Of a stretch of DNA of 64,000 nt, positions 1,821-34,068 are shown piece by piece. The stretch is from assembly GCA_965223905.1 (NCBI GenBank), contig CBDCXV010000010.1, forward strand, positions 352,001 through 416,000, written 5' to 3'. Position 1 is the stretch's first letter; each line of letters begins with the position of its first letter. A program made the position numbers and the translations under genes. The notes beneath the pieces were generated by a model that worked only from the letters and a program-made list of their open reading frames with translations, searched no databases and was not told the DNA's origin. Origin of the DNA: Candidatus Latescibacterota bacterium. GTDB lineage: Bacteria; Latescibacterota; UBA2968; UBA8231.

Positions 1821-2812
1821 GTATAGGTAATGAGGCACCTTTTTTGACTCTCGGTCAAGGCGCTGAGCGTACCGCAAGGGTCTGGCAACTCCCCTGAGGA
1901 TCGTTGCCAGTCCTTCGACCGAGCTCGCAGTACAGTTTGGTTGCCTGTCGGCCCGTATCCGCATCAATCCGGGGCCTGAGGGACCGTTGAGGGCACCCCC
2001 CCGCCGTACGCCCGGCGACGGCCACGGGTCGAGAAGGCAGGTCAGGCGGCGAACTCGAACGGCGGCTGCGGCGGGGGGCCTGGCAGGGGGCCAACGCCGG
2101 GGGCCGGGCCGGCAAACCGACCGCGGTCAAATAGCATCGGATCGAGGCCGGATCGGTCCGGGCGGCGATGATCCTCAGGCGCCCGCCACAGGCTTTGCAT
2201 TCGCTGAGGTCGGAGGAAAACACCCGCGCCAGCAGGGTCGCCCAGCGCAGTCGATGGCCGCAGGACGCAACGCTCGCATCGCCGTCCGCCGCCGACGGCT
2301 CGGCAACCGGCTTGGCCGCCACGATGCGCTCGCGGGCCCGGGCCCGGGGCGCCAGGACCCCGTGGTAGCGTAGGAGATGGAGCGTACGCACCCCGGTGGC
2401 CGCATCTTTCAGGACCCGGCGCAGGGCGTTGGCCGGCGCGTGCCCCGGTGGCGGTGATCCCTCGCACCGAAGCCGCGGTGAGAGCCGCCAGCACCGGCTC
2501 CTCGTCGGTGAGCGGATCCGCTGCGGTGTCGTCGAGCAGGCCGCGTTTCGTGCACCAGCGGATGATGCGGCGCGCACTCGTCTCCACGATCTGCTGAACG
2601 GCTTGGTCGGACAACGGCGGGGCCGGAACGGAAACCGGAGCGTCCTCCCCATCGACGTAGACCCCGTCGAGCATGAGCACGTGTACGTGGGGATTGAGGT
2701 TCAGGGAGGAACCGAATCTTTGGACGAAGGTCACCGAGCCCCACCGCGCGCGGTCATGGCCCATGGCCTGCGCCTGACGCCGATACCAACGGCCCACCAC
2801 GCGCAGAAACAC
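1821..2812 (-). mobile_element. IS91/ISCR-type element piece 1: ori end plus 5'-truncated transposase with ~260-bp internal deletion
   Basis: Starts GTATAGGTAATGAGGCACC; collinear with 6781-8016 except 7329-7587 is missing; keeps NPHVH (HUH), lacks the RYVARP segment. Confidence 0.9.
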
Positions 2813-3029
2813 GGGGCCAGATCGATTACACTAGCTCGCCCGAGGTGGTATCGAGCGACTTCGTCGGCAATGAGAGAAGCGGCATCGTCGACTCGGGGGC
2901 GACCATTACCCAGGGCAAGCGCTGCGTGCTGTACGTGTGGTACCCGACAACGAGTACGGCTACAGCGCCCAGGTGATCCGCATCCTGCAGCACATATCCG
3001 GTCTCGAACTGCCCTATTTCCCCAAGTAA
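2813..3029 (+). pseudogene. gap: 3' fragment of glyceraldehyde-3-phosphate dehydrogenase
   Basis: Manual translation GQIDYTSSPEVVSSDFVG...CVLYVWY/DNEYGYSAQVIRIL...FPK*; GAPDH WYDNE motif with a 2-nt shift; abuts the element piece. Confidence 0.8.
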
Positions 3030-3052
3030 TCCAATAGCTAGGACAGCTCTCC

Positions 3053-4206
3053 ATGCGAGAAAAGCGAGAAGCCAAATACCGGGTCGGCGTCATTGGCTGC
3101 GGACGGGCCGGCACCAGTCGGGCCCGGCCTTTGATGTGCACCCCTTGTGCGAGGTGGTGGCCATTGCCGATACGGATGCGGAAAATCTGGCGCTGGGTTG
3201 CCGCCGCTTCGGGGTGCCCGGCTACGCCACCTACGAGGAGATGTTGGCACGCGAGTCGATCGATATCGCCATGCCAGTGCTGCCGGTGGGAGCCAACGCC
3301 GGAGCAGTAGTGGCCGCGGCCCAGGCCGGGGTCAAGGCCATCTTTTGCGAAAAACCGCTGACGGCCCGGCTGTCCGCAGCCGACCGCATGGTGGAGAGCT
3401 GCCAGCGGCGGGGCGTGTATCTGGCCTCGGGCGTCATGGTGTCGAGCCATCCAGACTACCGCCGGGCCTGCGAGTTGGCCGCGCGCGGGGGGGGGGGGGC
3501 GATTGGCCAAGTGCAGGGCATCAATCTGTACGACGGCAACGGCCAGGGTGGCTGCCACGGTTTGAACTTGGCGCGCAAGTTCGCCGCCAGGGCGCCGGCG
3601 GAGTGGGTCGTCGGCCGGGTCGAGGGCGATCCCCATAGCGATCACGAGGAACCCTACGAGGAAGGAGCCACTGGTTTCGGCGGCGTGGGCGGGTACATTC
3701 GCTTTGACAATGGCATAGAGTGCTTCAGCAGCTTCCCGGGCCCGGCCTGGCGCGGCCTCGAGGTGGTGGGCAGCGAGGGACTGATCTGCAATTGGAACAA
3801 TACGGCCCTAGGTTTGCGCCTGTTCAAGCACAGCGGTCGAGGGGCCCCTTTGGTCGAGGTGGAAGGGGTGTTCGAGCAATACACCGAGGAGGAGAGGGGG
3901 TACGACGACGAGGGCTGGCAGGATTCCGGGCCGGTGATGCGGGCCATTGTCGAGGATATCGTCCGCGTCCTCGAAGAAGGCGGAGACTTGGCAATCACCA
4001 GCGGCGACGATTTGCGCCATGCCCTGGAGTTGGCCGTGGCCCTGCGCCAATCGCACCGGCAGGGCGGCGCCCGGGTGTCCCTGCCCTTGGCGGATCGCTC
4101 CCTGGTGATGTACCCGGAAAAGATGCGCTGGAACTACAAGAAAGACCTCATGGGTCGAGCCGCCTATATGGCGCAGATGGCGCGCCAGGTCGAGGAGGGC
4201 ACCTGA
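3053..4206 (+). CDS. Gfo/Idh/MocA oxidoreductase, frameshift near 3127
   Basis: YRVGVIGCGRAG in the first frame, FCEKP in the second. Confidence 0.8.
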
Positions 4207-4236
4207 GAAGCTCTGGCGAAAGCGGTTAGTGCATGA

Positions 4237-5307
4237 TCAGGTGGTGAGCAGCTTTGCCAGTTCGGGCAAGACATCCTCGGCAAGACCCTCGACAAACCAG
4301 TCCTGTGCATGCATGAAGGCCGGTCTTTCTGGAGCCACAACGACGATTTGGAGGGCGTTGTCACGGGCATAGTCCAGCAGACCGTTATTTGCATCCATCG
4401 ACACGCCTGCAACCAAAGCTACCTGACCTTCCTCGATCCAAGCCCAGCCCTCGTCTGAGCTTTTAAAGTACTTGGGTTCGTTTATATGCACTTTTTGGCT
4501 ACCGGCCCATTCGTGCAGCCCGTCAAAATTGCCCGTAATGATATGCTTCAGTATTCCGTGTTTCTCCAATTGTGCAAGAGCCGCATGGGCTTCGGTGGGG
4601 CTGGCTGTCATAAAGCGGGTATAGAATGTTCCAAGTACTATAGCCGTCTCACGAGGTCGGTGTATTATCCAATCGGCAACAGCACCGGGAAAACGGTAAT
4701 TGTCGATGGGGAATTGCTCCTGCAGTCCACCTTTCCCGTCAAACGCGGGAATACCTGCCGCGGCCGATAACCCAGCGCCCGTGAACGCCACTAGTGGCTT
4801 GCCCTGAATGCGACGCGCAAGTTCCGCCACGTCAACAGCCTCAGCCTGTTCAGGGGCTTGCTCTGGACTTACGGGGTAGTAGCCCCTCCTGCGTTCCGAT
4901 CGTGCCCGCAAGGAGTTCCTAAAAATGGCGGGATCGTCGTGTGAGAGTAACAAATGAGTTGCGACCGTTCCATCGCGCGTTGGTTGGGAGAAAAACTCCA
5001 ACTTAAACTCCTCCCAGACAGCTTCGAGGCGATTTTCCTGGCGCAATGTAGCAGACCACAGACCATCCATGATAGTCTGTCGCAGAGCACTAATCTCGGC
5101 AATCATCTCCTCCTGCTCGTGTTCGCAAGAATGGGCTACCAGGAGGTTTGCCAAGTCAACCTGGCCTTCGCTGGAGATAGCAAACTCGCCATAGAAGCCG
5201 AAAAATCCCGATGGTCCTCCAAAATTGAAATCCATTCCATAGAAGCCCCCAGTTTGTTCTTTGTACCACTCCAACTGCTCTGAGGTTATTTGAGTCAGCC
5301 TGATCAT
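4237..5307 (-). CDS. Atypical Sir2-family protein with an N-terminal extra domain
   Basis: FTGAGLSAAAGIPAF and IITGNFDGLH motifs. Confidence 0.75.
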   Translation of the reverse strand: MIRLTQITSEQLEWYKEQTGGFYGMDFNFGGPSGFFGFYGEFAISSEGQVDLANLLVAHSCEHEQEEMIAEISALRQTIMDGLWSATLRQENRLEAVWEEFKLEFFSQPTRDGTVATHLLLSHDDPAIFRNSLRARSERRRGYYPVSPEQAPEQAEAVDVAELARRIQGKPLVAFTGAGLSAAAGIPAFDGKGGLQEQFPIDNYRFPGAVADWIIHRPRETAIVLGTFYTRFMTASPTEAHAALAQLEKHGILKHIITGNFDGLHEWAGSQKVHINEPKYFKSSDEGWAWIEEGQVALVAGVSMDANNGLLDYARDNALQIVVVAPERPAFMHAQDWFVEGLAEDVLPELAKLLTT

Positions 5308-5451
5308 ACGCCTCCAACCTTCATGCTCGATAGCATCTATCAGTTCTCTAAGAGGGCGGACAGGGTACTTGCCTCGGGACGAGTACCGAGCTTTTCGCTA
5401 GTCGTCTGCCGGGGCCCGCGTGGAATACCGTGGCGTCCAAAGGTGCTCTAA

Positions 5452-6612
5452 TCAGTAGTCCCGCAGGGCGCCGTCGGGTCCAATCACCGGCGACCGGGTA
5501 TAGGGCACAGGCGGATAGTGCGGGAACGCTTCGTCGTTCAGTTCAATTCCAATGCCGGGAGTCTGCGGCACAATCAGGAAACCGCCCTCGCGTCGCAGTG
5601 GCATCTCGACCAGATCCCGTTTCGGGGCATCGTACTCGTCCCGCGGGTACTCCTGGATGGCGACGTTGTGGATGGCGGCGTCGAGTTGCACGCACGCCGC
5701 GGTCAGGACGCAACTCAGAGGGTTGTGCGGGGCGACTCCCACGTAGCTTGCTTCGGCAAGCGCCGCGATCTTTTTGCAATTCGTGACTCCACCGGCGAGC
5801 GACAGGTCCGGCCGGATGTACGAGGCCCCCTTGTGGGCCAGCAACTCGCGGAACTGGTAGGTGGTGTAGAGCCGCTCGCCCATGGCCACGGGCACCGGCA
5901 TATTTGCCGCGATATGGCCCCACGCGTCCATGTTCTCGGGCTCGATGGGATCCTCGAAAAAAAACAGGCCATAGGGCTCAAGGGCCTTGGCCACCTCGAT
6001 GGCCTCCGGCGGCGTGAGGCGGTTGACCACGTCGACCATGAGATCGATCTCGTCACCCACGGCGTCGCGGACCGCCTGTAGGGTAGCCGCGGCGTGCTTA
6101 GCCATGCCGCGGAACGACAGTTGTTCTAGGCTTGTGCCCTCGCCGGACGCAAAGGCCCCGAACGGATAGAGGCGCAGGGCTGTGTAGCCGGCCTCGACCA
6201 TGCTCCGGGCGTCTGCGGCCAACTCCGCCGGGGTATCGCCCTGCAGATGGGAGTACACGCGCACGCGCTCCCGCGTAGGACCGCCTAGCAGCGAATGGAC
6301 GGGTAGCTCGGCTACCTTGCCCTTGATGTCCCATAGCGCGATGTCGATTGCACCGATCGCGGCCATGGTGTCTGCGCCGCCGCGAAACACGCAGCGGCGG
6401 AACATGTGCTGCCAGTTGCGCTCAATGTGGAGGGGATCCTTGCCGATCAGGTACTCGGCGCAGTAATCCACCGCCGCAATGGGCGCAAACGACGTGCCGC
6501 TGGTGCCGCTTGCGGGGTGCAACTCGCCGACCCCCGCTATGCCCTCGTCAGTGTGCACCCGCACGTAGATAAAGCGGCTGGCCCGCAGGGTCTCGATCTT
6601 CGTGACTTTCAT
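5452..6612 (-). CDS. Mandelate racemase/galactonate dehydratase-like enolase superfamily enzyme
   Basis: AIDIALWDIKGK, FFEDP, MGER and VAPHNP motifs. Confidence 0.9.
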   Translation of the reverse strand: MKVTKIETLRASRFIYVRVHTDEGIAGVGELHPASGTSGTSFAPIAAVDYCAEYLIGKDPLHIERNWQHMFRRCVFRGGADTMAAIGAIDIALWDIKGKVAELPVHSLLGGPTRERVRVYSHLQGDTPAELAADARSMVEAGYTALRLYPFGAFASGEGTSLEQLSFRGMAKHAAATLQAVRDAVGDEIDLMVDVVNRLTPPEAIEVAKALEPYGLFFFEDPIEPENMDAWGHIAANMPVPVAMGERLYTTYQFRELLAHKGASYIRPDLSLAGGVTNCKKIAALAEASYVGVAPHNPLSCVLTAACVQLDAAIHNVAIQEYPRDEYDAPKRDLVEMPLRREGGFLIVPQTPGIGIELNDEAFPHYPPVPYTRSPVIGPDGALRDY

Positions 6613-6642
6613 ATCCGTTCTACCTATCTGCCTTCCTAAAAA

Positions 6643-6780
6643 TTAGCTCGCCTCGCGTCCCCGCAGCGCCCCACTCCCCACCATCGCGATCTCCAACGCC
6701 CTCAGCCCATCGCGGTGATCAACGGCAAAGGGTGCTCCAGCACGGCACTGGTCGATATAGTGGGCCACCTCGGCCTTGAA
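6643..6780 (-). pseudogene. 3' fragment of a probable Gfo/Idh/MocA oxidoreductase, cut by an ori end
   Basis: FKAEVAHYIDQCRAGAPFAVDHRDGLRALEIA begins exactly at the element boundary. Confidence 0.6.
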
Positions 6781-8482
6781 GTATAGGTAAAATGAGGCAC
6801 CTTTTTTGGACTCTCGGTCAAGGCGCTGAGCGTACCGCAAGGGTCTGGCAACTCCCCGGAGGATCGTTTGCCAGTCCTTCGACCGAGCTCGCAGTACAGT
6901 TTGGTTGCCTGTCGGCCCGTATCCGGATCAATTCGGGGCCTGAGGGGCCGTTGAGGGCACACCCCGCCGTACGCCCGGCGACGGCGACGGGTCGAGAAGG
7001 CAGGTCAGGCGGCGAACTCGAAAAGCGGCTCAGGCGGGGCCCTCGGCGGGGGCATCCCCGGCAGCCCTACTCCCTCCAGATAGGTCCGGATCGAGGCCGG
7101 ATCGGTCAGGGCGGCGATGATTCTCAGGCCACCGCCGCATGCCGCGCATTCGCTGAGGTCGGAGGAAAACACCCGCGCCAGCAGGGTCGCCCAGCGCAGC
7201 CGATGGGAGCAGGACGCAGCGCTCGCCGAGCCGTCCTCCGCCGACGGCTCGGCACCCGGTTGGGCCGGCACGATGCGCTCGCGGGCCCGGGCCCGGGGCG
7301 CCAGGACCCCGTGGTAGCGTAGGAGATGAAACCGGGGCGGGGGGAACCAGAGCCGCCCGCTTCTCCAGCAGTTCCATCGGAGAGAGCAGGAGAGGGCGGG
7401 TCCCATCCGACCACGGCGTTTTGAGCGCGAAGGAAAGATGGTCGGCATCGAGAACGCGCAGACGCCCCCCCGCCAGGGCCGGCCGGGCCACGTAGCGGCA
7501 CAAGCGTTCGAGCCCGCGCCGGTCAGGGCCTGCGATCCGCGTTGCCGCATGCAGGGAAAATCCGCGCGAAGCAAAGCACAAGGACGCCGTACGCACCCCG
7601 GTGGCCGCATCTTTCAGGACCCGGCGCAGGCGTTGGCCGGCGCGTGCCCCGGTGGCGGTGAGCCCTCGCACCGAAGCCGCGGTGAGAGCCGCCAGCACGG
7701 GCTCCTCGTCGGTGAACAGATCGGCGGCGGTGTCGTCGAGCAGGCCGCGTTTCGTGCACAAGCGCATGATGCGGCGCGCACTCGTCTCCACGATCTGCTG
7801 CACGGCTTGGTCGGACAACGGCGGGGCGGGAACGAAAACCGGAGCGTCCTCCCCATCGACGTAGACCCCGTCGAGCATGAGCACGTGCACGTGGGGATTG
7901 AGGTTCAGGGAGGAACCGAACCGCTGGACGAAGGTCACCGAGCCCCACCGCGCGCGGTCATGGCCCATGGCCTGCGCCTGACGTCGATACCAGCGGCCCA
8001 CCACGCGCAGAAACACCGCCAGTACGGCCGAGACCCACTCGCCGTCGTAGGCGAGGCGGTAGCGAATCTCGTACGGAAAGCTGAGCACCCACTGGCGCAC
8101 CGGCACCCGGGGCAGCACGTCGTCGACCAGGCGCGCCGCCGTATCGGCCATGCGCCGGCCGCAGCACGAGGGGCAGCACCCCCGCTTCTTGCAGGAAAAG
8201 GCTAACGGCCCGGCTCTTCCCGCAGTCCTCACAACGGGCGCGCACGAACCCGTAGGCCAGAATGCCGCATTCGAGGTAGGCCCGCAGCTCTTTGTCGACA
8301 TGGAGGGGCAGTCGGTGCTCGGCCGTTCCGGCTTGCTGGAGAAAGGTTTCCAGATGCCCGGCGAGGACCTGGTAGAGGGGCTCCTTTTCCGGTTCGCGGC
8401 GACGGTACTCGGGTGGGCGGACAGGTGTGACCGGCATGGTGCCGGCCACACAGCAATGGGCGGACCACCCGTGCTCGCGTCC
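6781..8482 (-). mobile_element. IS91/ISCR-type rolling-circle element, near-full-length reference copy (piece 2)
   Basis: No terminal IRs or target duplication; coding strand ends ...TTTACCTATAC 224 bp after the stop; right end shared with 33972-34068. Confidence 0.92.
7005..8437 (-). CDS. HUH rolling-circle transposase (IS91/ISCR family), frameshifts near 8205 and 7340
   Basis: CEDC...SCKKRGCCPSC Zn motif, NLNPHVHVL (HUH), LCRYVARP, RYHGVLAP and a C-terminal CxxC. Confidence 0.92.
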
Positions 8483-9216
8483 GCTTTGAGTCGGACAAGG
8501 GCTCGGTCACCTACTTCGACGCCTGGTTCGACGACAACCCCACCGCCAGGATGAAGCTCGGCCACGTAAAAAAGGCCGACATCGTCATCGCCAGTCACGG
8601 CCACGGCGACCACATCGGCGACTCCTATGAAATCTGCAAGCGCACCAAGGCCAAGTTCGTCGGCAACTACGAGCGCTGCGTCGTCGCTGAGGAGGTGCAC
8701 GGGCTCAAGATGGGCTCGCGCGCGCTGTCGATGAACCCCGGCGGCACGGTCAAGGTGAAAGACGCCGAAATCACGATGGTGCAGTGCCACCACTCGCAGT
8801 CGCTGTCGACCCACGTGATCGGGGCCGAGTTGCCCGCCGGCCTGCTGTTCCACCCCGACAGCGCCGTCAATGGATTTGTCATCTCCTACAACAACGGCAT
8901 CACCATTTACGACACCGCCGATACCTGCCTCTTCAGCGACATGCAGCTGATCGGCCAGATGCATGGGCCGCAAGTGATGGTCATGCCGGTGGGCGGACAG
9001 TATACGATGGGCATTCGCGAGGCGGCGAGGGCGGCGAGTCTTGTCCGCCCCGATGTCGCCATTCCCTGCCACTACGGGCCGATAATGGGGCAGCCGGCAG
9101 ATATTGGCGAGTTGAAGAAGGCGGTGAAGTTTCTCTCTCCCAATACCGAGGTGGTTGAGCTGAAGGTGGGGCAGACGTTGACCTATACGGCGAGTCGCTA
9201 CAAGGTAGGGCGCTAA
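8483..9216 (+). CDS. MBL-fold metal-dependent hydrolase (UPF0173-like), native start replaced by the element
   Basis: SHGHGDH motif; family-like sequence FESDKGSVTYFDAWFDDNP continues upstream of ATG 8551 to the element end. Confidence 0.85.
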
Positions 9217-9251
9217 AGCCACGGTAGATCTGAGGTAGCACCTAATTATTG

Positions 9252-9289
9252 AAATGGGGAAGATCTATATAGAGATCCTCCCCATTTTT
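9252..9289 (+). terminator. Intrinsic terminator-like hairpin
   Basis: AAATGGGGAAGATCT / AGATCCTCCCCATTT inverted repeat with a T-run, after the stop at 9216. Confidence 0.65.
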
Positions 9290-9475
9290 GATCAGGATCT
9301 TTGGGCCACTATCCCCTCATGTTTAGATAAATCAACAGTTTAGCTCATGTTGTACGTTCGGCGCTGGGCCAAATGTGGAATTAATCCCACATTTGCTGGA
9401 CCCACTGGCAGGGCAAGGATGCACGACGGACCCGACGCTGTCCGCATTTCGAGTCTCCTCGTGGACTAAGGTGCC

Positions 9476-10384
9476 GTGATAGGCGAAGAGCCAAAATTTT
9501 CGGTCTCGGAGGTGACAACGTATCACCTCAGCTTCCAGGAAGATCTGGCCGTCTACCGGGAAGCGGGAGCTGGCGGTATCGGGATTTGGGAGTTCAAACT
9601 CCCCGAGGGCCGCGACCGCGAATCGCTGGACCAGTTGCGCGACAGTGGCTTGCAAGCAACTTTGTGTGCCCCGGCCGTAGTCGAGGTGATTCCCAGCGAG
9701 TTCGGTGGACCGACAGATGTGGAGGAAAGAGTGGAGGCGATGTGCGCGGGGATTCGCCGATTGGCTCCGTTCAATCCCGTTGCGATCGCGTGCCTACCCG
9801 GTCCCCGCGGTCAGCTGGAGCTCAACGAAGCACTCCGCATCGCAGCTGACGGCTTGCGCAAAGCGGCACAGACGGCCGCTGAATTCGGGATTCAAATCGC
9901 CGTTGAGCCACTGCATCCCGAGGTGTTGGGTGACAAGACCATCATCACTAGCCTGGCGCAGACGATCGAGTTGATTGATCGAATTGACCAATCCAATATT
10001 GGCATCCTGTTCGATCTCTACCATCATTGGGACCAGCCCGACATTCTATCGCAAATTCGGGAGCACGTGGGCCGCTTCGGCGGTGCCATTCACATCGACG
10101 ATTGGCGTGAACCCACCCGCAGCTGGGCGGACCGAGCCTTGCCCGGTGAGGGGGCGATGGACTTGCCGGCACTCCTTGGCGCACTGGAGGCCGCCGGCTT
10201 TGACGGGTGGTACGATCTGGAGATCTTCTCCGACGACGGTACCTTCGGAGCAGATTATCCCGACTCACTCTGGAAGCTCGATCCGCTGGAGATGCTGCGG
10301 CGGGCCAAGGGTGGGTTCCTGCGTGCGTGGCAGGCACGCAAAAAGCTTGGTTCCGTTCTTCCCACGCGGGAGAATATGCAGTGA
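9476..10384 (+). CDS. Sugar phosphate isomerase/epimerase (xylose isomerase-like TIM barrel)
   Basis: AVEPLHP, FDLYH, HIDD and PGEG...LEIFS motifs. Confidence 0.85.
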
Positions 10385-25956: not shown

Positions 25957-27924
25957 TTAGTACATCATGCTCAGTCCGTTACCCAGCATCCCGGTAAAGT
26001 AGTCGACGATCAGCCAGAATCCCCCGGCCACGAACTGACCCAGAATCAACCCGTAGAACACGGGGATGAGCGACTGATAGGCTTTGAGGCCGCCGTACTT
26101 CAAGAGGACCGTCTTGATCAACCAGGCCAGAAAGACCGGAAACCAGGCGGTGTCCATCACCCGGTCCATGCTGACCACGAATCCCAGAGGATGCAGCGGC
26201 CACCACAGGAATCGGCGCTGCATGAGCAGCAGACCCGTCATCACCCCGGCCCCGATCAGCCGAATGAGCCAACCCAGCCCGTTCGGTCCCGCGTTCTCCT
26301 CGACCCGGCTCGCCACGTACGCCCAGGTGAAGTCGGGGAGGTAACTGACGGAACGCGCTACGTTGATGCCTCCCTCGCGATAGGCTACCGACAGCGACAT
26401 CCAGAAGGTGCTGACAGCGGAGACCAAAATGGCAATTGCCAGCGCCAGCAGCAGCCAGCGCTTGCGAGAGGCGATCTCGCCGGTCAGCTTCAACCCGGTG
26501 GCAGTGTGCGCCATCATCGTGCTCGCCAGGGACTCCGTCCATATCACCGTGGGGCCCAGCGCCGCCATCCCCGCAGGCCCTATGTAGCGCACCCCGATCC
26601 CCGAGACCACGAAGTCCAAGGGGATGTTGCGGGGAAACACCATGGGCAGTCCCGCCTCGGCGATGATGCGCGTCAGGCTGACGAAGGTTACCAGCGCCCC
26701 GAACAGAAACAGCAGACCCGCCCACAGGGGCAAACCCGCCCGCCACAGCCACACGCTCATTCCGATCACCCCGAGAATCACCCCCCATACGGCGGTGCGG
26801 TAGGACATGATTTCATCGGAATCGTCCACGGACGCGTCGCCTCTGAACGCCTTGCGGAACACCTCCCGCAGGTGCCCCCGGGCCATCCACAGCCCGAAGA
26901 GGACGAGCGCTAACATCGCGCCGATGCTCTGATGAGCCAGCAAGCCCCTCACACCGCCGCCGCCGCCATAATTGGACAGCGCTTCTCCTATGCCGAGCCC
27001 CGTCATGTGCAGCACACCCTCCTCCAGGCGCCTCAGGGCATAGAACACCCACATCCCGAACATGACGTCCGCCTTGAGGAAATACGCGAACCCCAGAATC
27101 ATCAGATTCAGCGAAAAGCCTACATTCGCGAATCGCGGCAGCAGTGTGAGTGAGCCGAAGTGGGTCGGAACCACGGGAACGATGGGGAAGTAGTGGTGCA
27201 GGGCGTTGAGACTCTCGCGACCGAACGACAGCGACAAACCCACCCACATCAGACCGCTCTTGAAGAAAGGCGCCACCAGCGAACCGCCCGGTGGCGGCTG
27301 CACCATGGCCAGCGGCACTTTGGTGATGGGATAGATGAGATGTTCGTGCTCCACCCACTGGCGGCGAAGGATAACCATCGCGCAGATGCTCGCCATCCAC
27401 AACGCCACCATGAACAGCAACCACCACAACAGCGGCGACAACCACATGCCCCAGGGAATGGACTCGCCCTCCGGTATGCCCTCGAAAAACCACCGGATCC
27501 CCAGCTCATCCTGAGGGACCATCCACTTCGCCACGTAGGGATGAACACGCTCCGCCCAGTTGTTCTCCGGAGTCGCCAGGTAGGATACCCCGGCCGCGGA
27601 CCCCAACAGCATCATGCAGAAGCCGTTGCGCTCGCCACCCGAGAACGCCGTGGCTACGACCATCATGATGTAGATGGTCAGCAGCTCTCCCTTGCCCAGG
27701 ACCAGCCTCCGGTGAATGAGCCCCAACACCACCTGGACGACACCCACCCACAGAAAGAACAGGAAGAATGCGGCGGGACCATTCAACCCGCTCATGCGGG
27801 TGCCCATGATGACGAACGCACCGTAGGGCTCTCCCACGCCGATCGCCAGACTGAGTGCGGCGCCGATGACGAGCGAGCGCAGCGTCACCCCCGACGCCGA
27901 CCGGTCCTCTAGCCCCCCTGACAA
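25957..27924 (-). CDS. DUF6785/DUF6784-like polytopic membrane protein (putative peptide transporter)
   Basis: 655 aa, many TM helices; LRRQWVEHEHLIYP, WWPLHPLG and LKYGG motifs. Confidence 0.8.
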   Translation of the reverse strand: MSGGLEDRSASGVTLRSLVIGAALSLAIGVGEPYGAFVIMGTRMSGLNGPAAFFLFFLWVGVVQVVLGLIHRRLVLGKGELLTIYIMMVVATAFSGGERNGFCMMLLGSAAGVSYLATPENNWAERVHPYVAKWMVPQDELGIRWFFEGIPEGESIPWGMWLSPLLWWLLFMVALWMASICAMVILRRQWVEHEHLIYPITKVPLAMVQPPPGGSLVAPFFKSGLMWVGLSLSFGRESLNALHHYFPIVPVVPTHFGSLTLLPRFANVGFSLNLMILGFAYFLKADVMFGMWVFYALRRLEEGVLHMTGLGIGEALSNYGGGGGVRGLLAHQSIGAMLALVLFGLWMARGHLREVFRKAFRGDASVDDSDEIMSYRTAVWGVILGVIGMSVWLWRAGLPLWAGLLFLFGALVTFVSLTRIIAEAGLPMVFPRNIPLDFVVSGIGVRYIGPAGMAALGPTVIWTESLASTMMAHTATGLKLTGEIASRKRWLLLALAIAILVSAVSTFWMSLSVAYREGGINVARSVSYLPDFTWAYVASRVEENAGPNGLGWLIRLIGAGVMTGLLLMQRRFLWWPLHPLGFVVSMDRVMDTAWFPVFLAWLIKTVLLKYGGLKAYQSLIPVFYGLILGQFVAGGFWLIVDYFTGMLGNGLSMMY

Positions 27925-28108
27925 ACCCAGTAGTCCCTCTCTCGAGTGTCGCCAGGAAACCTCGACGACCTACTCAATTCCAATGGTCACAAGATGAAAC
28001 GGTAGCGGAGGAATGGAAAGAAAAGATGGATATGGAGATGCGGATGGGGATGGAGAAATGGAGATGGGCACCAGTGGAGACGTGGGAGGAGTACTACTCG
28101 ATCTCCAA

Positions 28109-28698
28109 GTATAGGTGAAATGAGGCACCCTTTTGGACTCTCGGTCAAGGCGGACAGCGCACCGCAAGGGTCCGGCAACTCCCCTGAGTGTGGATCGTTT
28201 GCCAGTCCTTCGACCGAGCTCGCAGTACAGTTTGGTTGCCTGTCGGCCCGTATCCGCATCAATCCGGGGCCTGAGGGACCGTTGAGGGCACCCCCCGCCG
28301 TACGCCCGGCGACGGCGACGGGTCGAGAAGGCAGGGCCGGCGGCGAACTCGAACAGCGGCTCAGGCGGGGCCCTCGGCGGGGGCATCGCCGGCAGCCCTA
28401 CCCCCTCCAGACAGGTCCGGATCGAGGCCGGATCGGTCCGGGCGGCGATGATTCTCAGGCGACCGCCACAGGCCGCGCATTCGCTGAGGTCGGAGGAAAA
28501 CACCCGCGCCAGCAGGGTCGCCCAGCGCAGCCGATGGCCGCAGGACGCAGCGCTCGCCGAGCCGTCCGCCGCCGCCGACGGCTCGGCAACCGGCTTGGCC
28601 GGCACGATGCGCTCGCGGGCCCGGGCCCGGGGCGCCAGGACCCCGTGGTAGCGCAGGAGATGAAACCGGGGCGGGGGAACCAGAGCCGCCAGCTTCTC
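28109..28698 (-). mobile_element. IS91/ISCR-type element piece 6 (ori plus transposase 3' end)
   Basis: Starts GTATAGGTGAAATGAGGCACC; collinear with 6781-7365. Confidence 0.92.
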
Positions 28699-28816
28699 GC
28701 TAAGGGAGAAACTGGTTGCTCGGCATGAGTAACCATACGGCGTATAACATTCCGTGCGAGGTAGGTGCGAATCGTCCGATGATACGCATCTATGGACCGT
28801 CTACCGCGAGGAACTC

Positions 28817-29884
28817 ATGAATCCGACGAAAGTCGCCGTGATCGGGTGCGGCCAGATCGCAACCTCACAACATCTGCCGGCCTACCGGGAGGCAGCAGAG
28901 GCCGGGGTCTGCTGCCTCGTGGGCGTATGCGATCTGGACCCCGAACGGGTGGCGCAGGCCGGAAAGCAGTTTGCAGTCGCCGGATTTCAGGACGCGGCAG
29001 AGATGCTCGAAAAGACCAAGCCCGATGTCGTGAGCATCGCCACGCTGCCCTCGAGTCATCGCAACCTCGCGGTGATGTGCCTGGAGGCGGGATGTCACGT
29101 CCTGTGCGAGAAGCCCGTGGCGCTGGATGCGGGCGAGGCCCGGGACATGGTCCGCGCCGCCGAAGCGAACAATCGACTGCTGAGCATCTGCTTCGAATAC
29201 CGAACCTGGGACGAATCCCGGTACCTGAGAGACCGCATCGCAGACGGCGTCCTCGGTCGCGTACACGCCGTTCGAACGTGGGGCGGGTGTGCCTACGGAC
29301 TGCCGGCGAGAGCGCACCGGTCGCATGGCTCGAACGGCGGCGGCGTTCTCGCGCACTGGACGATCCACAACCTCGACCTCGTGCTCTGGCTGCTTGGCAA
29401 CCCCGAACCGCTGACCGCCAGCGCATTCTGCCATCAGCGGGTCTCCGCTTACCCGGCGGCGGCTGGATCCATGCGAGACGACATCGATCCGGCGTCGCTC
29501 GATCCAGATTTCGAGGACTTCGGCACCGGCTTCGTCCGGCTGTCCGGCAACACCATCCTGACGGTGGAAGCGGATTTCCTTCAGGCGCCCTCTGACCGAC
29601 GCGAAGGCTTGGCCTTTCTCGGAGACCGGGGTGCCGCGTCCATCTCACCACTCAGAATCTGGACCGACGACGGACGATCGTGGCGCGAGGAGACCCCCGC
29701 CAAGGGCACGTTGAAGCCTTGCGACTACGATATGAGGAGACTGATCAACGATTTTCTGCGCGCCGTCCGCGAGGGTGAGGCGTCCCCCGTTGCGGGCGAG
29801 GAAATCGTGCGAATTCAGCGGCTCATGGACGCGCTCTATGCCTCGGCAGCGTCCGGGCAAGAGGTCGCTGTGGCAGGAGCCTGA
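28817..29884 (+). CDS. Gfo/Idh/MocA oxidoreductase
   Basis: VAVIGCGQIA and VLCEKP motifs. Confidence 0.9.
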   Translation: MNPTKVAVIGCGQIATSQHLPAYREAAEAGVCCLVGVCDLDPERVAQAGKQFAVAGFQDAAEMLEKTKPDVVSIATLPSSHRNLAVMCLEAGCHVLCEKPVALDAGEARDMVRAAEANNRLLSICFEYRTWDESRYLRDRIADGVLGRVHAVRTWGGCAYGLPARAHRSHGSNGGGVLAHWTIHNLDLVLWLLGNPEPLTASAFCHQRVSAYPAAAGSMRDDIDPASLDPDFEDFGTGFVRLSGNTILTVEADFLQAPSDRREGLAFLGDRGAASISPLRIWTDDGRSWREETPAKGTLKPCDYDMRRLINDFLRAVREGEASPVAGEEIVRIQRLMDALYASAASGQEVAVAGA

Positions 29885-29889
29885 GCGCT

Positions 29890-30496
29890 ATGGGACTTGT
29901 GTACATCGAGTACATCAGCCGTCTGCCGGGCATCGATCTGGAGACGTTTCGCGCGCAGGCTGCACAAGGCCAGGAGGGATGGGACAGCGGGTATGAGGAC
30001 GAGTTGGTTCTGTCCGTCGGTCGCACGTGGCGATTGGGTCCCGACCCGGGCTACATGACGGTCTGGCACGCGCGGAACGCCAGCCTTGACCGGATCGACG
30101 CGTGGGACCGGATCTTTCGCAGCGGCGAGGCGGACGACCTGGAACAGCCGTTCTTTCAGGTCGCGCGGATCGACGTGGCCGGCTGCTACGATCCGCTGCT
30201 CGAACCGGTCCCGGCCCGCAACGGTACCTACTACGCCGAGTTTTTCGCTGCCCGCGACACCGCGGATACCATCAGGGGCTTCTACGAGAGCCGGGCAAAA
30301 CAGCATCCTGAGTTCACCCTCAATCTCCTCGTCCAGAGAATCGGGAAGCTGGCTCCCGAACCCGGCGGCCTAGCCGTCTGGACCATCCCCCTTCGCAGCG
30401 CTGGATTCCGTGGCAACCGAGCTGGACGGAGCCAACGCCCCGATCAGGCTTTCCGCCGCAGGGACCTATGCCGACTTCGGCAGGGAGATCCTGTGA
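29890..30496 (+). CDS. Hypothetical protein, probable frameshift near 30390
   Basis: Coding-like ORF whose plausible C-terminus (GTYADFGREIL*) is in another frame. Confidence 0.55.
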
Positions 30497-30584
30497 GAGG
30501 CGGGCGGTGGCAAACCTTCGGATAAGTTCCGCGGTATCGTCACGAGCGAAGAATTTGTCTGGCTACTTCCACGCAACCTTCCTG

Positions 30585-30903
30585 CCGGGGCGGGGGAACC
30601 AGAGCCGCCCGCTTCTCCAGCAGTTCCATCGGAGACAGCAGGAGAGGGCGGGTCCCATCCGACCACGGCGTTTTGAGCGCGAAGGAAAAATGGTCGGCAT
30701 CGAGAATGCGCAGACGCCCCCCCGCCAGGGCCGGCCGGGCCACGTAGCGGCACAAGCGTTCGAGCCCCCGTCGAGCATGAGCAGTGCATGTGGGGATTGA
30801 GGTTCAGGGAGGAGCCGAACCGCTGGACGAAGGTCACCGAGCCCCAGCGCGCGCGGTCATGGCCCATGGCCTGCGCCTGACGTCGATACCAACGGCCCAC
30901 CAC
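30585..30903 (-). mobile_element. Piece 7: internal transposase fragment without ori, with ~350-bp internal deletion
   Basis: Joins 7332-7515 to ~7867-8004 at a C-run. Confidence 0.9.
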
Positions 30904-31032
30904 ACCTCGAGTTCATTCAGGGCGTGATCGCCCCCCTCGCCGGTAACTCCTTCCACCTGAAGAGCTGGGCCGTCCTCCTGGTTTCGGCGCTGCTGGTCTT
31001 CCTGACTTGGAAAGGGAGGGTCGAGTTGGCCC
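30903..31032 (+). pseudogene. N-terminal fragment of a small membrane protein
   Basis: HLEFIQGVIAPLAGNSFHLKSWAVLLVSAL, between two transposase pieces. Confidence 0.55.
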
Positions 31033-31212
31033 CCGCAGCCGATGGCCGCAGGACGCAGCGCTCGCAGCGCAGTCCGCCGCCGACGGCTCGGCAACCGGCT
31101 GGGCCGGCACGATGCGCTCGCGGGCCCGGGCCCGGGGCGCCAGGACCCCGTGGTAGCGCAGGAGATGAAACCGGGGCGGGGGGACCAGAGCCGCCCGCTT
31201 CTCCAGCAGTTC
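31033..31212 (-). mobile_element. Piece 8: internal transposase fragment
   Basis: Collinear with ~7195-7374. Confidence 0.9.
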
Positions 31213-31480
31213 GCGGCGGCTGGCGGGGAGCGGCGCGATGATTGCGGGCGGGCTACGCCGCGCAGAAGAAAGTGTATTTGAAGCAGACCGAGGCGGCGGG
31301 CCTGGAGCGCATGCACGGGCTGCGCCACGGCTACTCTCTCGATGCGCTAACGGGAACCTGACGCATGGAAGGCGCCAGTGCGGAGAGTCCCCCGACACCC
31401 GCGGCGGCCGGAACGGCCGAACGAAGACGGCCCCGAATGGGTCGAGGCCCAAGGCCAGGGCCAGCGGGTCGGACCCGTGC
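31213..31480 (+). pseudogene. Degenerate tyrosine recombinase (Integrase_1-like) fragment
   Basis: QTEAAGLERMHGLRHGY (HxLRH) followed by frameshifted LT.WKAP. Confidence 0.55.
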
Positions 31481-31519
31481 TCGAACCTCGGTAATGTGTA
31501 TATTTATACACAATAAGGA

Positions 31520-31717
31520 ATGGTTGTGGAACGCAACAGCGGCAGGCTCATCCGGATGCTCCAACAGGACGGCTGGGTGCATGTCGCCACCAAGGGCAGC
31601 CACTGGCAGTTCACGCATCCCGCCAAGCCGGGGCGCGTCACCGTGCCGCACCCGAACAAGGACATCCCGCGCGGAACGGTGGCGTCGATCTACCGGCAGG
31701 CAGGCTGGAAGGCGTAA
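31520..31717 (+). CDS. hicA: HicA-family toxin
   Basis: DGW...KGSHWQFTHPAKPGRVTVPHPNKDIPRGT. Confidence 0.93.
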   Translation: MVVERNSGRLIRMLQQDGWVHVATKGSHWQFTHPAKPGRVTVPHPNKDIPRGTVASIYRQAGWKA

Positions 31718-31729
31718 GGAGGACGACTG

Positions 31730-32131
31730 ATGCGCTACGTATCCTTCATCCACCGGGACGACGCCGGCTACGGGGTCAGCTTCCCGGACTTCCCGGGTTG
31801 CGTCTCGGTCGGCGACACGGTTGACGACGCCGTCAGGCAAGGCGGCGAAGCCCTCGCGTTCCACGTTGAGGGGCTCCGCGACGACGGCGAGCCGATTCCC
31901 GCGCCCCGCTCGATCGACGCCATCAAGGCCGACCCGGACCTCGCCGAGTGGCGGCGCGGCGCCGACTTCGTGCTGATCCCGCTCCTCCTGGACCGCGGAT
32001 CCTCGCGGCGGGTCAATATCTCCCTTGACCGCGGCCTGCTCGACGCCATCGACGACGAGGCCAGGCAGCGCCGCATGACCCGGTCGGCCTTCCTGGCGAC
32101 GGCCGCCCGGCACGAGATCGAGGGCACGTGA
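31730..32131 (+). CDS. hicB: HicB-family antitoxin
   Basis: YGVSFPDFPGC...RVNISLD...TRSAFL. Confidence 0.93.
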   Translation: MRYVSFIHRDDAGYGVSFPDFPGCVSVGDTVDDAVRQGGEALAFHVEGLRDDGEPIPAPRSIDAIKADPDLAEWRRGADFVLIPLLLDRGSSRRVNISLDRGLLDAIDDEARQRRMTRSAFLATAARHEIEGT

Positions 32132-33067
32132 CCGGAGGCGACGGAGAAGGCACGAACGCAGACCAAGAGCGGGACCCGGGACGGGTGTTCGGGTGAGCCG
32201 GTGAAGGACCCGTACTGGTGATGGTTGTGCGCCCAGAGGAAACTGAGGCGAGATACGGCGTGCCGGTTCTCGAGAGAGAACGGTCCTGGCGCGAAGAACG
32301 ATGAAGGAGGCGTGGCATCTGTACGAGGCGGTGATCGGCAACACCCGCCTGTGGTTCAAGCTACAGGCTTCGTGTTCTTCTAGGACGCCGGCGGCGTTCT
32401 TCGAGTACCGGTTCACGGGGGCCGAGTACACTCCGGTGAATGGAGACCGTCCGGTGACCCCTTTCAGGTTGTCGGAACGTTGCCAGCACATTGCCAACCG
32501 GTCGGCAATTGTCGACCAGCTCCCCCATCAAGACGCGAAACGTTAGGTACGAGAATTACATCCGCGAGATGGAGGAGCGGATCGCCGAGCGCGACGAGCA
32601 GGTGCGGGAGGAGAGACGCCGGAGAGCGCAACGACCCGCGACTGGGGGCTCGATTCCGGCGGGGTCCAACGGACCGCGGGCTAGGCAGCCGGACCCAGCC
32701 AAGACGCTGGCCCGAGCGCTCCGTCGGGTCAACGGGCTGATCGGCCAGGGCTTCTACTGCTCGATCCACGGTCGTCACCACCGCTACGGCGAGCAGGCCA
32801 AGCGGAAGACCGTGGCGAGCCTTACCGAGACGATGGCGCAGATCTCGAGTTGGTGGCCGGCGGATCGCGAGTTGGCGATGTCGCGGATGGACGACATCGC
32901 GGCACACTGGTTGCAGGTGAATCAGTCACAAGAGTGCGCGCAGCGGTCGGTGTGGGGCGATGGGGACATCCCTGACGTCCTTTACAAGTACATCCCCAGG
33001 GAACGGATAGGCGGACGGGGCGCCGGATACCCTGCGTGCGACACAGCTGCTGGCCCTGAACGACGAC

Positions 33068-33853
33068 ATGGAATGCAACGTCGTCGCGATGAAGGGCGGC
33101 GAGGAAGCCGCCCTCGAGTTCCTGCGGTCGGTGCAATCCAAGGTGAAGGAGCATCTGGGCGTCGACGTGCCGTGGGAGGACCTCCTGGTGCGGTGGCAGT
33201 TGTACGCCGATGTCAGGCTATCCACATACGTGCAGGAGTACTTGAACACCCGGTTGGGCGTTGTCTCGTTCAGCACCGACATACTGGTCCCGACGATGTG
33301 GGCGCACTACGCCCGGAACACGGGGATAGTGGTGGGTTACGACAGGGACGCGTTGAAGGCACTCGGGTTCGAGTTGAGGCCCGTGCTCTATTCGGAAATA
33401 GCCCCCGTCTGGGAACCGAGGGAAGGGGAGGACATCCGGCTCGATTTCGTCAACCGCGAGGACGTGGAACGGGAGCTGCGGTCGGGCCGGGATCGGGAAG
33501 GCTGGCCCATCCTCACGCGCACACAGCTCGCCACGTTCGGGGGGTATTGGAAGCTGCTGTCCCGACTACTGTTCGTGAAAGGCATGAGCTGGGCGTACGA
33601 GAAGGAAGTCAGGTTGCTGGTGGACCTCGAGCAGGCGCGCGACACCGGCAAGGTCCGCGATGGCTGGCCCGTCAAGGTGATCCAACCTCCGCGGGAGGCG
33701 ATAAGGGAAGTCTACGGCAGTACCAACACAAGGGAGGAGGACCTCGAACAGGCCGTTCAGGTGGCCCGCGGCGAACGCAAGGATGGGCTATTCGTCGGGC
33801 ATGTGTCGGGCCACGCTTTTCGCATGCAGAAAACCGGCGGGACTCGCTATTGA
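33068..33853 (+). CDS. DUF2971-like protein; probably extends upstream to ~32500 across a frameshift near 33012
   Basis: LYKY...LND upstream; MWAHYA and K..SWAYEKEVR motifs. Confidence 0.7.
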   Translation: MECNVVAMKGGEEAALEFLRSVQSKVKEHLGVDVPWEDLLVRWQLYADVRLSTYVQEYLNTRLGVVSFSTDILVPTMWAHYARNTGIVVGYDRDALKALGFELRPVLYSEIAPVWEPREGEDIRLDFVNREDVERELRSGRDREGWPILTRTQLATFGGYWKLLSRLLFVKGMSWAYEKEVRLLVDLEQARDTGKVRDGWPVKVIQPPREAIREVYGSTNTREEDLEQAVQVARGERKDGLFVGHVSGHAFRMQKTGGTRY

Positions 33854-33971
33854 GTGGTGTGTCACGTTGGATTATCTGAACGGGCTTGGTGGCGAGGCAG
33901 GTCTGATCCGTACCCATTCACGGGGGCCGGAGAGTGGGAGTCGATGCGCGACGCTCACGTTGTGGGAGGCA

Positions 33972-34068
33972 TTTCGGGTTCGCGGCGACGGTACCCGCGT
34001 GGGCGGACAGGTGTGGCCGGCATGGTGCCGGTCCAACAGCAATGGGCGGACCACCCGTGCTCACGTCC
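33972..34068 (-). mobile_element. Piece 9: transposase 5' end and ter-side leader
   Basis: Matches 8386-8482 with a few substitutions. Confidence 0.85.

Follow-up and report, generated by a model that had tools for sequence, protein, structure and literature searches.

How did nine pieces of one mobile element come to lie in a single orientation, with blocks of other genes between them, along one stretch of a bacterial chromosome? The window (the whole stretch of DNA analysed, 64,000 nt) comes from a genome assembled in 11 contigs (G000), which we compared with two genomes of the same genus (G001 and G002). The nine pieces, designated A to I, derive from one 1.8-kb element and span positions 1819-34168; alignment confirmed the original prediction that all nine share an orientation and that six share a start. 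We consider it rather probable that the locus is a degenerate array built by a rolling-circle (HUH, Y2) element of the IS91/ISCR family, whose units, having no ter end, moved by one-ended transposition and were later reshaped.

Pieces A to F begin at an identical nucleotide (AAGTATAGGTAAAATGAGGCACC) and stop at el 8016, 8482, 7744, 7369, 7369, and 7365, respectively (el numbers are window positions within the reference copy, B). The pieces share 86.5-97% pairwise identity (100% for D and E), and the spacers between successive pieces are 3966, 4414, 5196, 2559, 5306, 1886, 126, and 2759 bp. All are on the minus strand, and all copies in the window are defective. Piece A (1819-2379 and 2383-2812) has an internal deletion of el 7329-7587: its divergent ori-end part (el 6779-7328, 86.5-88% identical to the other pieces), which groups with C10_1468257 (support 100/99), is joined through three filler bases to el 7588-8016. 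Piece B (6779-8482) is the longest; it keeps the ori end and matches Y2_Tnp (1.2e-20) and Zn_Tnp_IS91 (9e-7), but is not the complete copy it had been taken for, since tnpA is frameshifted, about 90 bp at the ter end are missing, and its 730-aa ORF extends into the antisense of the adjoining MBL gene. Pieces C (12897-13867; el 6779-7744), D (19064-19652), E (22212-22800; el 6779-7369), and F (28107-28698; el 6779-7365) follow, and then two ori-less pieces, G (30585-30773 and 30763-30903; el 7332-7521 and 7863-8004) and H (31030-31212; el 7195-7374), with 126 bp between them. The common ori start and the variable stops thus stand as predicted, whereas piece I proved longer: it runs from 33972-34068 on to ~34168, comprising the region of the tnpA start along with the true ter end, which is adjoined by a GC-rich subterminal hairpin (34147-34166; fold z-scores for the whole region are not significant).

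The transposase gene of the element lies on the minus strand, a correction to the original description, and therefore the end common to the pieces is the oriIS side, as had been supposed. The only intact transposase gene in G000 is on contig C11 (L015:324-1766, 480 aa). Its domains are Zn_Tnp_IS91 (PF14319, 7.9e-21) and Y2_Tnp (PF04986, 5.2e-29) only; a helicase domain is absent. The protein aligns with positions 24-485 of the 509 in the NCBIfam ISCR_clade_Ia model at 364 bits (cut-off 925 bits) and scores 108.3 bits against the IS91 model (cut-off 125 bits), reaching neither cut-off. The element belongs to the IS91/ISCR family, as predicted. Its transposase has ~41% identity to relatives from Proteobacteria and stands outside both named subgroups, as a distant superfamily member. 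An H-L-H triplet and two R-Y sites, which we take to be the catalytic motifs, are seen in the translation. The two ends are unlike and have no terminal inverted repeats: a sharp ori is found on the 3′ side of tnpA, and on its 5′ side a ter that is unlike the ori. With CTTG, GTTC, and GTCC considered as target tetranucleotides, we found none conserved directly 5′ of ori at 14 ends in G000 (CTTG in 1 of 14, the rest varying), and nothing like the IS91 CTTG/GTTC at the 14 G002 junctions (of 20 examined) that have the canonical end; nor did we find a ter-like motif common to unit ends and truncation points. A full copy on contig C1 has no direct repeat at its flanks, and no empty site was found for comparison. 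The intact copy differs from the others in the last ~20 ori bases; since, in addition, every copy in the window is defective, present-day mobilization is only putative, although the C11 transposase may be able to act on the array ends.

The DNA between the pieces was imported, as predicted: the cargo is absent from the syntenic site in G001 and G002, and part of it recurs in other arrays (99.9-100% identity). Block 1 (2813-6778) encodes a GFO/IDH/MocA oxidoreductase, a SIR2-domain protein, and an MR/MLE enolase-type enzyme (Pfam); window positions 2383-6613 recur in an array at 1.6 Mb (4231 bp, 3 mismatches to C10:1604638-1608868), and this shared segment does not start at an ori. Block 2 (8483-12896), of which we found no high-identity copy in G001 or G002, carries an MBL-fold hydrolase missing its first ~13 codons relative to a paralog, a xylose-isomerase-like TIM barrel protein, an ABC ATPase with an ABC-2 permease, and a MASE1 gene cut by the ori of piece C, with profile positions 2-50 of 299 left. 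Block 3 (13868-19063) holds an unassigned gene fragment, an NTP-transferase/CDP-alcohol transferase/HAD fusion gene, and a GFO/IDH/MocA gene, and forms with piece C a 6167-bp unit. Piece D is followed by a cut GNAT gene and a cut glyoxalase gene (765 bp; with the piece, 19064-20417, minus strand) and by block 4b (20418-22211), which has no assigned genes; positions 20428-20827 are part of a dispersed repeat (~70-72% identity). Block 5 (22801-28106) is a mosaic of a GNAT gene, truncated C-terminally and fused with the element, an intact glyoxalase gene, an aldo-keto reductase gene, and a DUF6785/DUF6784 copy; positions 23566-25654 are shared with the array at 1.6 Mb and with G002. A 1694-bp segment also matches the 1.6-Mb array at 100% identity and, with the 4231-bp segment, speaks for recent movement of DNA between arrays. 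Block 6 (28699-30584), with a GFO/IDH/MocA gene and an unassigned ORF, lies between the two copies of a 33-bp direct repeat that belong to the element, one at the end of F and one at the start of G. Block 7 (31213-33971), parts of which occur elsewhere in G001 at 86-95%, encodes a HicB-like antitoxin, a DUF2971 protein, and unassigned ORFs. The MASE1, MBL, and GNAT genes are thus cut as originally listed, whereas we found no gap gene, no PF00589 integrase in C10:352001-386200, and no oxidoreductase cut at a junction. In the D copy, a glyoxalase gene is cut as well.

One block could be traced to an ordinary chromosomal locus, a check that the original prediction had proposed. Positions 25654-28053 are a condensed version of a native DUF6785/DUF6784 locus, collinear with the native locus of G002 (3726456-3733667, 85-93% identity), which in turn shows synteny with the 2.08-2.11 Mb region of G000’s own contig C10, at only 81-92% identity. 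The block is a second, foreign-like copy of this locus.

The array is not the product of one element alone, as had been proposed, since other mobile DNA has landed there too. A 1.56-kb repeated element, IS-like and unclassified (257-1812), stands to the left of the first ori end, 6 bp away, and is unrelated to the array element; G000 has four further copies (93-99.7%), copies are also found in G002, G012, and G010, and neither of its long ORFs matched a Pfam family. An 86-bp MITE-like insert is located at 25257-25342, in block 5. These insertions favor a different account of the locus, an insertion hotspot or graveyard in a tolerant accessory island, where full-length elements and other insertion sequences accumulated, ter sides were lost to ordinary deletions, flanks were reshuffled by homologous recombination among the copies, and cargo came in by other means, with no capture by the element. 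We regard this as possible, but doubtful. The dispersed repeat, which is present inside G002 units as well, the 4231-bp shared segment with its non-ori start, and the missing target or termination tetranucleotide also fit it.

Repeats misjoined during assembly might produce such a pattern as well, given copies that are 87-100% alike and a genome in 11 contigs. The junction sequences argue strongly against this, and we give an artefact almost no credence. Six junctions (12896/12897, 13867/13868, 19063/19064, 19652/19653, 20417/20418, and 22211/22212) are reached by 27-34 nt in contigs from four public runs of three studies (most of these spans are below the bridging threshold of 31 nt, and the contigs break at 20417 in all four runs). 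Flank/ori and element/cargo junctions, including that of piece C, recur nucleotide-exact in G002, and the ter/flank junction recurs in both G001 and G002; the misassembly that might have undone the original prediction is therefore not what we found.

Counts across the genome also bear on the hotspot. G000 holds 53 element pieces, of which 22 keep the ori end (piece start within 7 nt of it) and five reach the ter end (two-sided binomial p ~0.0015); G002 has a similar bias, with 21 ori ends to 3-4 ter ends among 56 matches. Random deletion in a hotspot does not predict this excess. The window array is not unique: G000 has at least eight clusters of this kind. Orientation is uniform rather than random in all eight clusters with two or more pieces, which a hotspot would not predict without a replication-strand rule. 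GC-skew sign was considered as the cause of orientation and rejected, since C10 0.3-0.6 Mb and C11 are both negative and their pieces are opposite. No full-length copy is found among the 56 G002 and 22 G001 matches.

At the right edge of the array, the ter/flank junction is common to G000, G002, and G001, with a right flank that is syntenic over >30 kb, while the left flanks differ among all three genomes. What remains at this junction is a single element with an internal deletion in G002 and a 55-bp remnant of the ori in G001. Array content is almost wholly strain-specific (3 of 20 G002 ori junctions match G000). In arrays with shared flanks or cargo, several differences between genomes look like plain deletions: a piece at C10:1609336 without its ori part, differing truncation points before the same cargo, and the deleted states of G002 and G001 just described. 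Such in-situ deletions between orthologous loci are what a hotspot would leave, and for several junctions deletion, internal rearrangement, or homologous recombination is the better reading. IS801 offers a precedent: excerpts of the report (PMC3189936) ascribe most genomic fragments to reorganization, not one-ended transposition.

The junctions at ori point the other way. Positions 19064-20417 and 22212-23565 are 100% identical over 1354 bp, with identity beginning at the first ori base and ending inside the glyoxalase gene, which is intact only in the E copy; this favors the predicted copying from ori into flanking DNA and is not expected of a hotspot. Of the 22 ori units in G000, only one pair has cargo in common beyond the element. 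The flank ending at 19063 adjoins an E-type unit in G000 and a C-type unit in G002, and the C-type unit adjoins the cut MASE1 gene in G000. These exchanges fall exactly at the ori nucleotide, again unpredicted by a hotspot. In addition, the order in G000, [element C][13868-17010][644 bp][17655-19063], is [17655-19063][element C][13868-17010] in G002, a circular permutation such as a circular or tandem intermediate would leave. We infer that rolling-circle copying, not recombination alone, made most junctions, and that units probably enter at ori junctions already present. Circles and swapped flanks can also arise by homologous recombination between direct copies, and this counts against our main reading, as do the missing ori tetranucleotide and ter-like motif, the dead copies, the single pair of ori units with common cargo, the 4231-bp copy without an ori start, the deletion-like differences, and the IS801 precedent.

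The exact exchanges raise the further, rather speculative idea that the ori junction is a site-specific recombination point, at which the transposase nicks a resident ori and the ssDNA circle of another unit is joined in, or strands are swapped between two ori junctions. If so, growth and reshuffling of the arrays would proceed in one direction, to the ori side of a single anchored copy with a ter end, and each stacked ori would form, with the single downstream ter, a nested exportable segment. This would amount to a transposase-driven, self-assembling form of gene stacking that has no target tetranucleotide, samples the chromosomal genes of relatives, and is conserved across a bacterial family.

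Exchanges at exact ori junctions would also suit a selected, integron-like capture platform, in which useful cassettes are stored and expressed and the ori pieces serve as putative recombination sites or promoters; comparable arrays in several genera of the family, and many intact cargo genes (AKR, glyoxalase, GFO/IDH/MocA, ABC transporter, DUF6785), are in keeping with this. We think it improbable. The genes at unit edges are cut (MASE1, MBL, GNAT), the blocks are mosaics with internal deletions, content is nearly all specific to the strain, and the arrays have no dedicated recombinase, the sole intact transposase being elsewhere in G000. As predicted, none of the 19 PF00589 integrase matches in G000 falls within C10:352001-386200, which takes in the array, and no tRNA lies within the array either. 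The working platform originally proposed lacks support on two counts, dead copies throughout the window and a selected function nowhere indicated.

A degenerate array formed by one-ended transposition could have arisen as follows. The genus’s common ancestor would already have had an element at this chromosomal site, as the shared ter/flank junction indicates. Each unit would consist of an oriIS end, a 5′-truncated transposase remnant, and DNA from the ter side; since units lack terIS, one-ended transposition would be their sole way to move. Transposase supplied in trans would nick the ori junction and copy rightward, with the stop falling anywhere or, on a circular form, after one complete round, and the new copy would be placed beside or within resident copies. 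The outcome would be head-to-tail stacks of one orientation upstream of a single ter-bearing copy. These stacks would later have been eroded and shuffled by deletion, by template switching or homologous recombination among the many copies, and by other IS inserting into them.

Among known systems, integrons likewise hold acquired genes in ordered, same-direction stacks at one site, but the array has no tyrosine-recombinase integrase, and its units contain cut genes and several genes each. Helitrons transpose by a rolling-circle HUH mechanism and, in the portions cited of PMC4778049, capture gene fragments by failed or shifted termination; the resemblance is in mechanism only, since the array transposase belongs to another protein family and has no Rep-helicase fusion. 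The sdpA cluster of Sphingobium herbicidovorans, as described in extracts from PMC5737581, also has several IS91 copies with cargo between them, a tandem duplication via shared IS91 ends, and an observed 11-kb cargo circle; it differs in being on a plasmid, with few intact copies and an experimental circle, whereas the circle of the array would follow from the permutation alone. ISCR elements provide the best model for the transposase (clade Ia, nearly full length), and their complex class 1 integrons likewise have ter-less, same-orientation copies with foreign genes between; here, in contrast, the transposase is far below the ISCR cut-off, five copies have a real ter end, the cargo consists of ordinary metabolic and membrane genes instead of resistance genes, and the arrays are chromosomal, with 3-12 pieces each, in an uncultured-type lineage. 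With IS91, IS801, and IS1294 the element shares both transposase domains, distinct ori and ter ends without inverted repeats, an ori 3′ of tnpA, a GC-rich hairpin by ter, ori-anchored truncated derivatives, and the mobilization of flanking DNA: parts of PMC3189936 describe IS801 ori fragments of 229, 360, and 679 nt with upstream DNA carried along, and termination failure is put at 1-14% in a section of PMC13181058. It differs from them in having no CTTG/GTTC-type tetranucleotide by ori, in its sub-threshold IS91 score, and in the far larger number of fragments per genome and their long same-orientation stacks. The array is thus a large natural example of IS91/ISCR-type elements acquiring and stacking adjacent DNA, a principle that known IS91 one-ended transposition and ISCR arrays already cover.

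We compared the window with itself and recovered nine pieces of one element, all in a single orientation, between 1819 and 34068; the original prediction had described these pieces with coordinates correct to within 2-3 nt, and its observation stands, with corrections. Six of the pieces (A-F) share their first nucleotide (start sequence AAGTATAGGTAAAATGAGGCACC; hereafter the ori end) but have variable stops, as had been claimed: measured on the reference copy, B, piece A starts at 1819 and stops at position 8016, B itself starts at 6779 and stops at 8482, C (from 12897) stops at 7744, D (from 19064) and E (from 22212) both stop at 7369, and F (from 28107) stops at 7365. Three further pieces are without the ori end: G (30585-30903), H (31030-31212), and I, which extends from 33972 to about 34168 and carries the true far (ter) end. 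A small GC-rich hairpin adjoins this far end, and a hairpin by the ter end is described for the IS91 family (PMC3189936). The pieces are 86.5-97% identical to one another, D and E fully so over 1354 bp, and the spacers separating them are 126 to 5306 bp long. The breaks at 7365, 7369, and 7374 of the reference copy lie close together, as a truncation hotspot might produce; in G002, a genome of the same genus, piece lengths are widely spread.

Support for the junctions had been asked for, and we sought it in Logan contigs from four public sequencing runs (three studies), with a bridging rule of 31 nt. The contigs extend 27-34 nt over six junctions, so these junctions are crossed, but mostly just short of the rule and by contigs rather than reads; most contigs end 27-30 nt into the repeat. 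In these runs the cargo between the pieces has single depth, and the depth of the element pieces is high. Two junctions are reproduced to the nucleotide in G002, and one recurs in both G002 and a second genome of the genus, G001. The reach of the contigs together with this recurrence makes misassembly very unlikely.

Alignment with other copies in the genome indicated a full element of about 1.8 kb, and revealed that copy B is frameshifted and lacks its last ∼90 bp. The long ORF of copy B (minus strand) contains the Y2_Tnp and Zn_Tnp_IS91 domains; its length of 730 aa is an accident, as it reads into the antisense of the adjoining MBL-fold hydrolase gene, which has strong third-position GC. 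The sole intact transposase gene of the 7.9-Mb assembly lies on another contig, C11 (480 aa, both Pfam domains present). Its product scored 364 bits against the NCBIfam ISCR clade Ia model (cut-off 925), with a nearly full-length alignment, and 108 bits against the IS91 model (cut-off 125). Since it falls below both cut-offs, it is a distant member of the IS91/ISCR superfamily, and the element is a new, distant member of this family. The closest named relatives of the C11 transposase come from MAGs titled Candidatus Latescibacterota (83-88% identity); identity is 74% to a Chloroflexota MAG protein, 61% to a Polyangia MAG protein, and ∼41% to proteobacterial relatives. A search for a solved structure gave none (the top PDB match, with E 0.16, is unrelated), and the search of G001 and G002 for an empty site of the intact C11 copy returned partial flank matches only. 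tnpA points away from the ter end and toward the end that the pieces share, which identifies the latter as the oriIS side; IS91 has the same layout, with the gene reading away from ter and toward oriIS (PMC13181058).

The most informative evidence is the comparison of this site with the two relatives. From ∼34169 rightward, the window is syntenic with both G002 and G001 over more than 30 kb. At the same flank junction G002 has a single ori-to-ter element, internally deleted, and G001 has a 55-bp ori remnant fused to the flank; the cargo is missing from this site in both, and the left flanks differ in all three genomes. It follows that the common ancestor already had an element at this site, and that the 32 kb built up in the lineage of the window's genome, on the ori side of or inside the resident copy. 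One possible reading takes F, G, H, and I together as this copy (ori at 28107, ter at 34168), split by two insertions and small rearrangements; cargo block 6 (28699-30584) is flanked on both sides by a 33-bp repeat of element sequence. We consider it fairly probable that one-ended rolling-circle mobilisation of ter-less, ori-anchored units (an ori piece with the cargo behind it) built the array: units retaining the ori end would be mobilised by one-ended transposition, would stack at the anciently occupied site, and the stack would subsequently be eroded and shuffled. The main rival is a history of hotspot insertion plus recombination alone, which we regard as unlikely but deserving of weight, and in its favor the differences between the orthologous arrays resemble simple deletions.

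Three observations on duplicated and rearranged units are signs of rolling-circle copying. The duplicate shared by D and E starts exactly with the first base of the ori and breaks off (at 20417 and 23565, respectively) inside a glyoxalase gene, which is cut in the D copy and whole only in the E context; no other pair among the genome's 22 ori units shares cargo. The flank that stops at 19063 joins an ori at the identical nucleotide in this genome and in G002, with different element and cargo behind it: in G002 it is followed by a C-type element and block 3 (13868-19063), and the C-type unit of the window is preceded by a cut MASE1 gene. Thus the order is [element][13868-17010][644 bp][17655-19063] in the window and [17655-19063][element][13868-17010] in G002, a circular permutation that calls for a circle or tandem intermediate. 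The known IS91 intermediate is a circle with the unit end joined to ori (PMC13181058), and a cargo-carrying circle was observed in Sphingobium (PMC5737581). Homologous recombination between direct copies could also yield a circle and flank swaps, but a break at the first ori base would not be expected from it. On the other side, no IS91-type tetranucleotide occurs beside the ori or at the unit ends in the inspected junctions of the two genomes, and no common motif was found at the unit ends, both of which we counted toward plain REARRANGEMENT. At junctions with known parents, a microhomology check gave a single shared base in one case and three filler bases in a second; piece A, a chimera with three filler bases, likewise counts for the rival. 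As a separate observation, one contig in each of two public runs (X6 and X8) joins 13869 to 19064, that is, the end of piece C plus two bases to an ori, omitting 5194 bp, almost exactly block 3; with 28 letters on its shorter side, this join may originate from another locus.

Using the full copy as a BLAST query, we found 53 element pieces in the genome, 22 of which start at most 7 nt from the ori end, five of which reach the ter end, and two of which are full length. All eight clusters of at least two pieces (sizes 3, 12, 4, 6, 9, 2, 2, and 3) are uniformly oriented; the window array is the largest by piece number, and a second cluster on the same contig, C10, at 1.60-1.65 Mb (the 1.6-Mb array), spans about the same length. 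We considered replication-strand bias as the source of this uniformity: dnaA adjoins the GC-skew flip on contig C1, and across contigs regions with the same skew sign hold pieces of opposite orientation, so replication direction does not explain it. On C10 the pieces lie on the plus strand at 343-1441 kb and on the minus strand at 1460-1934 kb, the only deviation being at 2021 kb; GC skew at ∼1.45 Mb, where the orientation switches, marks neither origin nor terminus. Two other arrays retain a ter end, both with truncated ori units upstream of the ter-bearing copy and one with fragments downstream as well. A tree built from the 560 bp nearest the ori places C, D, E, and F together as a local group (support 91/84) and A beside a piece from another array (100/99), with B on its own; the window array therefore mixes local copying and imports. 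Two pieces in the second cluster (C10:1621885-1622181 and 1628019-1628653) have a variant ori end, TATACGAGG..., and share 137 bp upstream, which suggests that they either belong to a subfamily whose end is longer or arose by local duplication. The bias toward ori ends is repeated in G002, with 56 matches (21 to the ori end, three or four to the ter end, none full length), and long same-strand runs of matches also occur in G004 and G012, which belong to other genera of the family. G004 has two ∼60-kb runs, at C1 2.49-2.55 Mb and 4.32-4.38 Mb, with ∼15 plus-strand and ∼12 minus-strand matches, respectively. The presence of such arrays in another genus makes them a trait of the whole family.

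The proposal that the cargo is ordinary chromosomal DNA is supported for one cargo block. Three segments of the window (25654-25728, 25765-25906, and 25956-28053) are collinear with G002 3726456-3733667 (93, 85, and 91% identity), an ordinary chromosomal locus syntenic with C10 2.08-2.11 Mb of the window's own genome (81-92%). The native DUF6785 gene there is only 81-86% identical to either the array or the G002 copy; since the array copy is nearer the relative's gene than the host's own, the segment duplicates a normal chromosomal region in condensed and foreign-like form. Between arrays, 2383-6613 differs from the 1.6-Mb array at three of 4231 bases, 23566-25259 is identical to it, and 23548-25259 is present in G002 at 99.5-100%; to judge from these near-identical segments, the traffic is recent. 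For blocks 1 (2813-6778), 2 (8483-12896), 4, and 6, neither G001 nor G002 contains a high-identity match. The recombination-only history gains from two of these comparisons: the 4231-bp segment begins within the element and not at an ori, and of 20 ori junctions in G002, only three are spanned by a match in the window's genome.

Functional annotation with Pfam predicted ordinary genes, for three GFO/IDH/MocA oxidoreductases, an MR/MLE enzyme, an MBL hydrolase, a xylose-isomerase-like barrel, an ABC transporter pair, a nucleotidyl-transferase/HAD fusion, GNAT, glyoxalase, and aldo-keto reductase proteins, a DUF6785/DUF6784 membrane protein, a DUF2971 protein, a SIR2-domain protein (4237-5307, minus strand, 356 aa, with the domain C-terminal), and a HicB-like antitoxin (31718-32131, plus strand) with no recognisable HicA beside it. 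SIR2-domain and HicB-like genes are of types often found in defence or addiction modules. Block-to-block GC swings from 53 to 67%. Of the genes said to be cut at junctions, we recovered MASE1 (∼50 residues left ahead of the ori of piece C), the MBL hydrolase (short of ∼13 codons), and GNAT (fused to the element), but not the gap gene or the integrase; the array does lack an integrase, as had been proposed, with no PF00589 match within it. No Pfam family was assigned to 257-1812, 13868-14526, 20862-21746, 29890-30525, 31331-32497, or the 2813-3037 fragment, and the window contains no tRNA or Rfam RNA that could be an integration site.

The 1.56-kb sequence at 257-1812, ending 6 bp short of piece A and its ori, has four further copies in the genome (93-99.7%) and others in G002, G012, and G010, and holds overlapping long ORFs of 475 aa (minus strand) and 402 aa (plus strand), neither with a Pfam match; it probably represents an unclassified insertion sequence. 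At 25257-25342 the window has an 86-bp insert that the counterparts in the 1.6-Mb array and G002, otherwise identical, lack; the insert's three further copies in the genome (100%) point to MITE-like behaviour. A ∼400-bp sequence at 20428-20827, beginning 10 bp past the end of the D copy, has about ten copies at ∼72% in G002 and several at ∼70-72% in the window's genome, where a related locus (∼C10 1.953-1.958 Mb) is 89-93% identical to sequence within three units of G002. These regions thus also collect other mobile DNA, which we likewise counted toward the rival. About 2.5 kb immediately left of the window (C10:349493-352104; window 2-104) is 88-99% similar, in the same orientation, to 37883-40039, which contains 51-bp and 297-bp internal repeats; direct repeats of a repeat-rich gene thus stand on both sides of the array and 3.7 kb of its right flank.

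The movement of resistance, virulence, and catabolic genes is attributed to IS91/ISCR elements; to our knowledge, there is little natural evidence of how they capture DNA, and most of it is from proteobacterial plasmids. This genome and its relatives hold dozens of ori-anchored units with precise junctions and, because one site can be followed across three genomes and cargo can be traced to an ordinary chromosomal locus, they are a natural data set on which one-ended capture, insertion at resident ori ends, and the formation of circle intermediates could be tested. They also extend the reach of IS91/ISCR-type elements beyond clinical plasmids, to shaping the chromosomes of little-studied environmental lineages. 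Architecturally, the analogy with an integron array is fair; functionally, it is unsupported. IS91, IS801, ISCR, and Helitrons already exemplify the underlying principle; the novelty lies in how large the arrays are, their chromosomal non-resistance cargo, the lineage that carries them, the missing target tetranucleotide, and the clean view of one site in three genomes.
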